From a virus (lineage: Duplodnaviria > Heunggongvirae > Uroviricota > Caudoviricetes), in the IMG/VR virus record IMGVR_UViG_2522572021_000012: 45,413 nucleotides of DNA. One strand, written 5' to 3'. This document shows positions 41,675-42,957 of the stretch, piece by piece. The notes beneath the pieces were generated by a model that did not search any database, was not told where the DNA came from, and was given only the letters and a program-made list of their open reading frames with translations. How positions within the stretch are numbered: the stretch's first letter is position 1; every line of letters begins with the position of its first letter. A program made the position numbers and the translations under genes.

Positions 41675-42423
41675 GCGAAATTAATTACCAGGCACTGCGT
41701 GAGGCGGCGGAACGTGCAATTCCAGCAATGGAACGCCTGTTAATGTTGCCAGCTGATGATGATTTGTTAAGTGAACAGGAACTTAAAGATTACGGTGTGG
41801 ATATTGATGCGCTCAACGCCTTCAAATTTCTGACCGGACCAGAAACCGTGCTGGCGCTGCTGGATGAACGGGAAAGAAACCAGCAATACATAAAACGCCG
41901 CGATCAGGAGAACGAGGATATTGCGCTAACGGTAGGGAAGCTGAGAGTTGAGCTTGAGGAAGTAAAACAACACGCTGAAGAATTATCCGAAACCAAGGCT
42001 GTTCGTAACCAATGGCGGCCAGATATTTGCCCAATAACCGGACGTGCATTTTTCATGTGGATTGAGCATCCAACATTGGGAAATGTGCCGACATATGGTG
42101 GCCCATTAGATAGTTACACCATTCCAACAAAGGACGGTGACGGTGAGTTTTCATGTGAGCGTTACGATCATGATTTTGGCGGTTGGGTAGAAAGCGAATG
42201 TCTTGGGTTATATCTGATTGATGATAGAGAACAATGCAGGGTCTACGAACTGGAGGAACGCGTTAAGGAACTGGATGCTCGGGAAATATCGCTCCCGGAA
42301 CGTAGCAGCATGCTTCATCGAACAGATTTTCACGATGATTACCAAACGGTAATGGCATACAAAGTTTCTGAAGTCATCGCTGCAATCCGCGCCGCAGGCA
42401 TTCGCATCAAAGGAGGTGAGTAA
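41671..42423 (+). CDS. Ead/Ea22-like early protein, hypothetical
   Basis: 250 aa beginning MSEINYQALREAAERAIP, paralogous N-terminus to the preceding gene. Confidence 0.45.
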   Translation: MSEINYQALREAAERAIPAMERLLMLPADDDLLSEQELKDYGVDIDALNAFKFLTGPETVLALLDERERNQQYIKRRDQENEDIALTVGKLRVELEEVKQHAEELSETKAVRNQWRPDICPITGRAFFMWIEHPTLGNVPTYGGPLDSYTIPTKDGDGEFSCERYDHDFGGWVESECLGLYLIDDREQCRVYELEERVKELDAREISLPERSSMLHRTDFHDDYQTVMAYKVSEVIAAIRAAGIRIKGGE

Positions 42424-42599
42424 TGCGTGTGGCATGTATCGGCTTGTTACCGTACCCGACTCGTTTTTGGGCTTCTGCGCTAATTGCAAAGCCGTATGTC
42501 CTGATGGCTGACAACATCATCCCGGCACCAAAGCGCCGCCATACCGGTATTGCAGCGGCACGACGAGCAGCAAAGAGACGCAGGAGAGCAAAGCGATGA
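42423..42599 (+). CDS. small arginine-rich protein, hypothetical
   Basis: 58 codons ending AAARRAAKRRRRAKR; TAATG and ATGA couplings; not in ORF track. Confidence 0.3.
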   Translation: MRVACIGLLPYPTRFWASALIAKPYVLMADNIIPAPKRRHTGIAAARRAAKRRRRAKR

Positions 42600-42772
42600 A
42601 AAACCGTAAGGCAAAACGACTTTTTTTACAGCGACCTGTGCGTGTGGTGGAGCTGGTTATTAGCAACCATAAGATAGCGGTACTCCATCCATTTGGTCAG
42701 GTGGCTTTTGCCGCAAAGCGTAAGCCTACTGCGTCACAGAACAGGCGGAAGAAAGGGTACGCTGTAAGATGA
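42596..42772 (+). CDS. small basic protein, paralog 1 (MKNRKAK...)
   Basis: 58 codons; shares start MKNRKAK and C-terminal K(R)KP-A-QNR-K pattern with 42769-42957; not in ORF track. Confidence 0.4.
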   Translation: MKNRKAKRLFLQRPVRVVELVISNHKIAVLHPFGQVAFAAKRKPTASQNRRKKGYAVR

Positions 42773-42957
42773 AAAACCGTAAAGCAAAGATTCTGTTAGT
42801 TCGTAGAAACGCTCCTGGCGTCTGGCAGTGGGTGAGACTCAGCAACCGACGGATGGGGTTGATGAAATATTACGGGATGATGGATTGTGGTTTTTGCAAA
42901 AAGCCCAGCGCGGCGCAAAACCGCTGGAAAAACCACTTGCGCACTAAAGGAGAGTGA
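42769..42957 (+). CDS. small basic protein, paralog 2 (MKNRKAK...)
   Basis: 62-aa track ORF; ATGA-coupled to paralog 1. Confidence 0.45.
   Translation: MKNRKAKILLVRRNAPGVWQWVRLSNRRMGLMKYYGMMDCGFCKKPSAAQNRWKNHLRTKGE

Follow-up and report, generated by a model that had tools for sequence, protein, structure and literature searches.

The small proteins encoded by the exo-xis region in lambda and Stx phages (Orf60a, Orf61, Orf63, Orf73, Ea8.5 and Orf55) are among the closest described counterparts of the genes considered here. The genes downstream of ea22 form a variable set and several exo-xis proteins have been modelled as binding DNA or RNA polymerase, with Orf55 modelled as three strands plus one helix (PMC8614690); Orf73 binds RNA polymerase (PMC8614690, PMC9239242). 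The locus under study comprises three short open reading frames (ORFs), ORF1 to ORF3, followed by ORF4, in a 45,413-nucleotide (nt) stretch of tailed phage DNA (IMG/VR record IMGVR_UViG_2522572021_000012), the whole of which is referred to as the window. By sequence the window is a lambdoid Shiga toxin (Stx)-type prophage, and over 801 bp around the ORFs it matches the Stx2c phage Stx2_EH1904 at 100% identity. The block can be assigned to the variable, ea22-distal part of the exo-xis region, within the early-left, pL-transcribed operon that runs towards xis/int. Like the exo-xis proteins, the three ORFs appear to be small non-essential accessory genes on the early-left transcript next to ea22; unlike them, they are far more basic and include tandem paralogues, they share no sequence relationship with any of the exo-xis set, and they occur outside lambdoid phages in P1-like phage-plasmids, phiV10, 9NA/Sasha-like phages and phage Av-05. 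The exo-xis literature examined does not describe them.

Boundary sequences, which Clark et al. 2001 (HK620) reportedly put forward for the early operons of lambdoid phages, provide the second point of comparison. In the boundary sequence model, conserved gene-junction sequences target homologous recombination in mosaic phage genomes (PMC3233612).

Coding evidence, family membership and putative translational coupling

A sequence-only reading had described three chained small ORFs with TAATG/ATGA overlaps, two of them paralogous and all very basic, and the description proved correct in every element on the + strand. The ATG of ORF1 overlaps the TAA stop of an Ead/Ea22-like gene (TAATG), and ATGA overlaps join ORF1 to ORF2 and ORF2 to ORF3 (Table 1). 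The ORF1 peptide (MRVACIG...RRAAKRRRRAKR) has a hydrophobic N-terminal half followed by an arginine-rich tail (PAPKRRHTGIAAARRAAKRRRRAKR), ORF2 begins MKNRKAKRLF... and ORF3 MKNRKAKILL..., and the net charges are +14, +15 and +14 respectively, at the isoelectric points (pI) listed in the table. BLASTP aligns ORF2 with ORF3 at 37% identity across 54 amino acids (aa; E=5e-10), which makes them paralogues, and pairwise comparison of ORF1 with ORF2 and with ORF3 found no similarity. The window contains the 20-nt head ATGAAAAACCGTAARGCAAA exactly twice, against an expectation of 0.02 matches in shuffled sequence. The same ORFs are seen intact in hundreds of phage and prophage sequences, and the three-ORF arrangement is far more than chance would give. 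Hidden Markov model (HMM) searches matched each ORF end to end, with nothing differing in sequence, to a phage protein family of unassigned function: ORF3 (E=1e-40, 1-62 of 62) and ORF2 (E=6.5e-23, residues 1-58 to profile 1-60) to PHROG 1380, and ORF1 (E=1.1e-41, 1-58 of 58) to PHROG 13831.

For the coding evidence, family members were taken from phage records and IMG/VR contigs, and synonymous and non-synonymous differences were counted in each frame and expressed as the non-synonymous to synonymous ratio (pN/pS). Relatives of the ORF3 type (n=17) give a pN/pS of 0.17 in frame and 0.74 and 3.2 in the other forward frames; the corresponding values are 0.12 against 2.9 and 5.4 for the ORF2 type (n=11), 0.42 against 0.61 and 0.90 for a third allele (n=26), and 0.28 against 0.94 and 3.2 for ORF1 (n=29). 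One antisense frame of ORF1, which holds no long ORF, also has a pN/pS of 0.24, attributed here to the third positions that this frame and the sense frame have in common. Codon position 3 holds 44 of the 81 polymorphic sites in the family (p=8e-5) and, in ORF1, 21 of the 41 (p=0.014). Nearly all family ORFs are intact (200/203, 58-71 aa), and the start codon of ORF1 is ATG or GTG among relatives in different phages. Across head codons 1-9 the pN/pS is 0.00-0.02 despite a synonymous diversity (pS) of 0.06-0.15, and by segment within PHROG 1380 it is 0.17-0.64 for the cores and 0.11-0.31 for the tails. The sequence-only reading had named beforehand, as the result that would count against it, conservation at the nucleotide level without conservation of the reading frames in related phages; the frames are kept, at 0.12-0.42. 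Since the conservation is not of nucleotides only, ORF1, ORF2 and ORF3 are taken, on these substitution patterns, as genuine, separately translated genes under purifying selection. A pseudogene or broken-long-gene reading is out, given that each ORF is conserved separately and is found alone elsewhere.

An MKNRKAK family in other prophages, as the sequence-only reading had anticipated, was found by family searches. A profile search of 1.84 billion representative proteins recovered only 47 relatives of PHROG 1380, and one of a 5.8-billion set recovered 210 clusters, whose listed entries name Escherichia, Salmonella, Citrobacter, Enterobacter, Klebsiella, Hafnia, Phytobacter and unclassified Enterobacteriaceae as sources; most clusters are called 'hypothetical protein' and a few longer gene calls take the names of neighbouring genes. 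On this sampling PHROG 1380 is an Enterobacterales prophage and phage family. Alignment of 27 diverse members yielded three motifs, M-x-N-R-K-A-[KR]-x-L, [RK]-[IVL]-S-N-[RH]-[RK] and S-A-A-Q-N-R-W-K-N-H, around a variable, fast-evolving core. ORF3 carries all three; ORF2 carries the first two and an altered third (TASQNRRKKG), as is usual for upstream copies. The codons of the central motif differ between E. coli alleles (Ser as AGC, AGT or TCA; Arg as CGA, CGC, CGG or AGA), and genes from Klebsiella, Hafnia, Citrobacter and another member of the Enterobacteriaceae have all three motifs in other codons, a pattern which indicates that the motifs are kept at the amino-acid level. The ORF1 family comprises 84 related 90%-identity clusters, all from Escherichia where named, and conserves LLPxPxRxW, then KPH, then PAPKRRHTGIAAARRAAK, followed by an Arg/Lys run.

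The two families are tightly linked in one direction. With ORF1 as the sole query for retrieving loci, 77 of the 77 evaluable ones had a PHROG 1380 gene directly after ORF1, in an ATGA overlap; 39 had two tandem copies and 38 had one. In other genera and in Stx2a phages, PHROG 1380 genes are found with no ORF1, as they are in the 9NA/Sasha-like phages PJ16 and Sasha, where the preceding gene is ParB-like. ORF1 with one or two PHROG 1380 copies can thus be regarded, from gene order, as a conserved module, and the two-copy arrays always pair different core types.

The arrangement has the structure of translationally coupled operon genes: the ORFs overlap, each Shine-Dalgarno (SD) sequence lies within the upstream ORF, and between positions 41500 and 43600 neither a terminator-like site nor a + strand promoter-like site was found. 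The SD of ORF1 lies in the end of the Ea22-like gene, the arginine codons AGG AGA in the tail of ORF1 make up the SD-like AGGAG of ORF2, and by sequence reading an SD-like AAAGGG inside ORF2 would serve ORF3; the three stand 6-11 nt 5' of their start codons. It is suggested that ribosomes handed on from the Ea22-like gene would read all three ORFs, and that this coupling would keep their output roughly proportional. The junction RNAs are no more stable than shuffled sequence (z=0.05, 1.52 and 0.17), and Rfam gave zero matches at E<=1 in 41500-43600. In the window, a separate hairpin can form between the end of the Ea22-like gene and the SD and ATG of ORF1 (-26.4 kcal/mol over a 71-nt stretch, z=-2.19); as it would mask both signals, initiation at ORF1 would depend on upstream translation. 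The ATG-to-GTG start variant preserves the hairpin pair as G-U. The hairpin is not a conserved requirement, because loci with another upstream gene end break 6-7 of its pairs with no compensation. A possible CCAGCG...CGCTGG hairpin in the tail, spotted by eye, was dropped: its arms fall on conserved codons for Ser-Ala and Arg-Trp, and the Citrobacter member lacks the pairing.

Table 1. Features of the locus, with positions in the window.
Feature	Position	Strand	Description
IS3-family insertion	38095-39308	+	orfA HTH_Tnp_1, orfB rve
21-nt junction, first copy	40364-40384		95% identical to second copy
Ead/Ea22-like paralogue	41012-41674	+	
47-nt shared head, first paralogue	41026-41072		79% identical to that of the second
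21-nt junction, second copy	41655-41675		GCAAAGGAGGCARCCAGTGAG, SD plus GTG
Ead/Ea22-like gene upstream of ORF1	41671..42423	+	250 aa; Pfam PF13935 Ead_Ea22, E=2.7e-29
47-nt shared head, second paralogue	41679-41725		
Hairpin at ORF1 start	42391-42433	+	
SD GGAGG for ORF1	42412..42416	+	within Ea22-like gene end; sequence reading
ORF1	42423..42599	+	58 aa, pI 12.0, PHROG 13831
SD-like AGGAG for ORF2	42582..42586	+	in ORF1 tail
Repeated 21-nt head, copy 1	42595..42615	+	GATGAAAAACCGTAAGGCAAA; 20-nt head plus preceding G
ORF2	42596..42772	+	58 aa, pI 12.0, PHROG 1380, 'upstream-copy' tail ...ASQNRRKKGYAVR
Repeated 21-nt head, copy 2	42768..42788	+	20/21 identical to copy 1
ORF3	42769..42957	+	62 aa, pI 11.3, PHROG 1380, 'terminal-copy' tail SAAQNRWKNHLRTKGE
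60-nt junction block	42901..42960	+	ORF3 tail, SD AAGGAG, stop, next-gene ATG
SD AAGGAG for ORF4	42947-42952		inside ORF3 tail
ORF4	42959..43474	+	171 aa, PHROG 631; ATG one base past ORF3 stop

Conserved ends and exchanged cores

Identity profiles across seven E. coli phage allele types, and a comparison of the terminal tails of four terminal-type alleles, separate the ends of the PHROG 1380 genes from their interiors. Codons 1-4 are 100% identical in nucleotides across the seven types and the cores are 25-58% identical, and the tails of the terminal copies are 96-100% identical among the four alleles, against 25-57% for the cores of these. The type of tail is set by position, or by the downstream neighbour, and not by the core: copies that precede another copy end ...QNRRKKGYAVR and last copies end ...QNRWKNHLRTKGE. 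The 60-nt junction block is common to alleles with differing cores, and taken alone it finds matches of 95-98% in P1-like and Sasha-like phages and in dozens of phages of the Stx1a/Stx2a kind. Against phage TL-2011b, ORF1 and ORF2 are 97-100% identical, the ORF3 core 37-73%, and the ORF3 tail with ORF4 100%; against phiV10, both cores are replaced and the junctions are 97-100% identical; phage 933W is without ORF2, the break falling between the two repeated heads. These alignments indicate that, among E. coli phages, cores have been exchanged between phages and that copy number varies between one and two.

The near-identical boundary blocks, divergent interiors and breakpoints at the blocks are those of a boundary-sequence mosaic, and the shift in copy number between the repeated heads is a further likeness to that model. 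The difference is that the blocks here lie inside coding sequence and are themselves under amino-acid-level selection, and for this reason the exchanged unit would be a protein core rather than a whole gene. It is suggested that the conserved heads and tails double as short homology tracts, at which recombination would shuffle cores and duplicate or delete copies. Targeted recombination at the junction blocks is nevertheless something that we infer from the alignments, and one consideration weighs against it: near-identical ends could reflect recent common descent of the flanks together with selection on the SD and start signals. Part of the conservation of the tail is indeed due to the embedded SD and the start of the next gene.

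Two further observations concern repeated or conserved gene ends. The two Ead/Ea22-like paralogues share a 47-nt head, and a 21-nt junction with SD and GTG is present twice (Table 1), so repeated blocks seem general in the operon, beyond the MKNRKAK genes. Two variants, P0054 and P0060, have the MKNRKAK head and the SAAQNRWKNH tail with a core read in the +2 frame (GETQQPTDGV..., corresponding to an alternative frame of the window at 42828-42947), which implies two compensating indels; these may be decaying copies, in which the core was easily replaced while the ends persisted.

Predicted fold and candidate functions

The AlphaFold model of ORF3, built on the alignment of 27 sequences, is alpha1(4-11)-beta(20-23)-beta(28-32)-beta(38-43)-alpha2(48-60), with a predicted local distance difference test score (pLDDT) of 84.9. 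Foldseek against the PDB returned nothing at E<=1e-3, and against BFVD it returned only the PHROG 1380 family member of phage Av-05. AP2/ERF and integrase N-terminal DNA-binding domains consist of a three-stranded sheet plus a helix. The model is like AP2/ERF and the N-terminal domains of Tn916 and lambda integrases in its length (~55-65 aa), its three predicted antiparallel strands followed by a C-terminal helix and its basic N-terminal tail, and it differs in giving no significant structural superposition on a member of that fold. The tail of ORF1 resembles arginine-rich RNA-binding peptides of the lambda N type in composition only, with no Pfam match at E<=1, to the N-peptide family or any other, and no Rfam element, boxB/nut hairpins included, in 41500-43600. 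A resemblance to CsrA-like or ribosomal-protein-like proteins was dropped for want of HMM support. The literature searched nowhere refers to the peptide, and neither a family nor a structure nor a publication gives these proteins a function.

Taken as a whole, the reading tentatively preferred here, with a little less than even confidence, is that the three products are nucleic-acid-binding accessory proteins made in fixed proportion through translational coupling, with the arginine-rich tail of ORF1 acting as a partner. Its parts differ in strength: that these are real coupled genes in a conserved module is close to certain, and nucleic-acid binding, which the sequence-only reading had suggested alongside a regulatory role and which is argued from charge and the predicted fold only, is a guess. 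The products would be small folded alpha-beta3-alpha proteins of pI ~12 and net charge ~+14. Asn, Arg, Lys, Gln and Trp are invariant in the family, and ORF2 and ORF3 would most likely bind nucleic acid (DNA or RNA) through the Asn-Arg motifs and the basic termini, to which ORF1 would contribute its arginine-rich tail, possibly in a complex with them. The three may then modulate the expression of phage or host genes early on, without being essential, as has been proposed for other exo-xis proteins.

Several points weigh against this reading. First, high positive charge can serve protein or membrane interactions too, and a physical interaction of ORF1 with ORF2 and ORF3 is drawn from their linkage only. 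Second, scans of ORF1 to ORF4 with Pfam, NCBIfam and PADLOC gave nothing meaningful and no match to a known anti-phage defence or toxin-antitoxin protein, the sole Pfam line (zf-C2H2_jaz, E=0.096) being below threshold, and a profile search of PDB sequences gave 0 matches at E<=10; a Pfam scan of the 27 aligned PHROG 1380 members gave scattered single matches only. Third, the Sakai ribosome-profiling supplement has no trace of the three ORFs and no expression data were found.

An alternative that is unlikely but retains a real share of the probability is that these are real proteins that bind a protein target, either a host factor (RNA polymerase, the ribosome, a nuclease and a defence protein are candidates) or another phage protein, with the variable core setting specificity, as in an anti-defence or exclusion factor caught up in an arms race, and the charge either incidental or matched to an acidic partner. 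The core evolves fast between constrained ends, one allele group reaching a pN/pS of 0.64, phages exchange at least seven circulating types of core, and the pairing of unlike cores in two-copy arrays also fits such a role. The neighbours are accessory early genes, a setting typical of genes for anti-defence and host takeover, and Orf73 offers an exo-xis precedent for RNA polymerase binding. However, no known defence protein model in PADLOC is matched, no core site has a pN/pS >1 at the available resolution, and the most conserved residues, Asn, Arg and Lys, are more typical of nucleic-acid contacts.

It is improbable, though it can be stated as a specific proposal, that ORF1 and the PHROG 1380 paralogues form a new small nucleic-acid-binding (or defence-countering) module with an exchangeable, specificity-determining beta-sheet core, held between constant terminal 'handles' that act both as contact motifs and as homology tracts. 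If true, cassettes would be shuffled within a protein of only 60 residues, in lambdoid, P1-like, epsilon15-like and 9NA-like phages alike.

About equally improbable is that the ORFs encode small toxic or membrane-active, host-directed peptides resembling Kil or the inhibitors of cell division, which pL would express early and which would be harmful if over-expressed. Lambda kil, Rac kilR and Qin dicB are small prophage genes of this toxic, early-left type and set a precedent to which the small size, early-left operon position and extreme charge of the three ORFs conform, as does the succession in ORF1 of a hydrophobic half and a cationic tail. Pro, Arg and Thr residues break up the hydrophobic stretch of ORF1, however, the prediction for ORF2 and ORF3 is of soluble, folded alpha/beta proteins that lack a transmembrane segment, the sequences resemble no family of this sort, and stable carriage on P1-like phage-plasmids and in 602 E. 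coli genomes fits a toxin only if it is tightly repressed.

That the heads and tails are conserved as nucleotides only, serving as recombination linkers, ribosome-loading sites or RNA structures with the peptides as by-products, is very improbable and largely refuted: it would account for ends so much more identical than the cores, for the 60-nt tail block occurring alone in many phages, for the SD of the next gene held in the tails and for the core of P0054 and P0060 being read in another frame, but not for a head with almost no non-synonymous change amid clear synonymous variation, for distant genera keeping the motifs in different codons, for a central SN[RH][RK] that survives multi-nucleotide synonymous changes or for cores with a pN/pS below 1, and the junctions fold no better than shuffled sequence and match nothing in Rfam.

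Neighbouring genes, distribution and significance

On the + strand from ~36.8 kb the order is an ERF recombinase, an IS3-type insertion, the two Ead/Ea22-like genes, ORF1 to ORF3, ORF4 and a DUF551 protein, and by sequence reading the window ends with an ASCH-like ORF and an AlpA/excisionase-like ORF. The IS3-family insertion lies between the ERF region and the accessory genes that follow, and it may have a polar effect on all genes downstream of it, the three ORFs included. The gene 3' of the terminal copy is variable, being of the ORF4 type in 49 cases, a 69-aa Cys-rich protein (MAIAASYTMHLYCDC...) in ~60 and one of several others elsewhere, and ORF4 is therefore one alternative among downstream genes and not a constant partner. 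A D...E-x-K pattern in ORF4 (QPDAMGF...LIEAK) resembles the PD-(D/E)xK nuclease core, and ORF4 matches weakly (E=0.0023) a PHROG annotated 'DNA repair protein'; Pfam, NCBIfam, PADLOC and PDB sequences gave nothing for it. Its frame is open for 24 codons 5' of its ATG, over the tail of ORF3 (from 42887). PHROG 9263 (230 aa) is a fusion of ORF3 and ORF4, and P0137 is a similar fusion to an alternative downstream gene that fits a one-base change (loss) in the run of five A's in TGGAAAAACCAC; both are probably mutational or assembly variants and not programmed frameshifting. A programmed ORF3-ORF4 frameshift was rejected, as by sequence reading ORF4 has its own strong SD and ATG and there is no slippery P-site codon.

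The virulent Escherichia phage Av-05 (NC_025830.1, Vequintavirinae) has an ORF1-like arginine-rich tail (KRRTGIAAARRAAKIRRKSKHKRK; 2441-2572 of the stretch L137) directly after a gene whose product end is Ead/Ea22-like (...ELRKGGE), with a different small gene next, and a PHROG 1380 relative ~2 kb beyond that tail, at 70873-71016 of the record; these copies suggest that lytic phages, too, acquire ORF1/PHROG 1380 modules.

A survey of 5426 complete E. coli genomes found the block in 602 of them, at 418 chromosomal and 297 plasmid places, the latter being P1-like phage-plasmids of ~85-100 kb among the records listed, and relatives of ORF3 are found in 146 of 50,697 phage records. In RefSeq, ORF1 (WP_001261538.1) and ORF3 (WP_000797279.1) are both hypothetical proteins and ORF2 is skipped in the record inspected; ORF2 is often left unannotated. 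Identical genes are likewise called 'hypothetical protein' in E. coli O145:H28 RM12581, VT2-Sakai, Min27, RCS47, phiV10 and other phages. The original annotation of 933W (AF125520.1; L004, 1501-1841) has no coding sequence for ORF1 or for its MKNRKAK gene. From its coordinates, L0068 of that phage starts inside the MKNRKAK gene and runs over it, in frame with the gene 3' of the terminal copy, and has the look of a call for that gene extended too far at its N terminus.

These genes were thus already catalogued as uncharacterised hypothetical families, and there is nothing unusual in their kind, that of the small accessory genes which temperate phages express early. The added interest is modest and lies in the strict linkage of ORF1 to the PHROG 1380 family, the three-motif signature and the exchange of cores within a gene between conserved ends, and it is these features, namely the linkage, the protein-level motifs and gene ends that would act as recombination junctions around exchangeable cores, that the sequence-only reading had missed. 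Establishing these ORFs as real genes under selection corrects a patchy annotation, with ORF2 often missed and L0068 over-extended in 933W, defines a compact module of ORF1 plus family members for experiments, and offers a clean example of mosaic exchange with breakpoints within a tiny gene. The block is common in pathogenic E. coli, being carried by 933W, VT2-Sakai, many Stx phages and P1-like phage-plasmids, and exo-xis genes reportedly influence the lysis-lysogeny decision and hence Shiga-toxin release. If the products prove to be binders of nucleic acid or of defence systems with swappable specificity, they would constitute a new small-protein family for phage-host biology; if not, they would be ordinary accessory genes.

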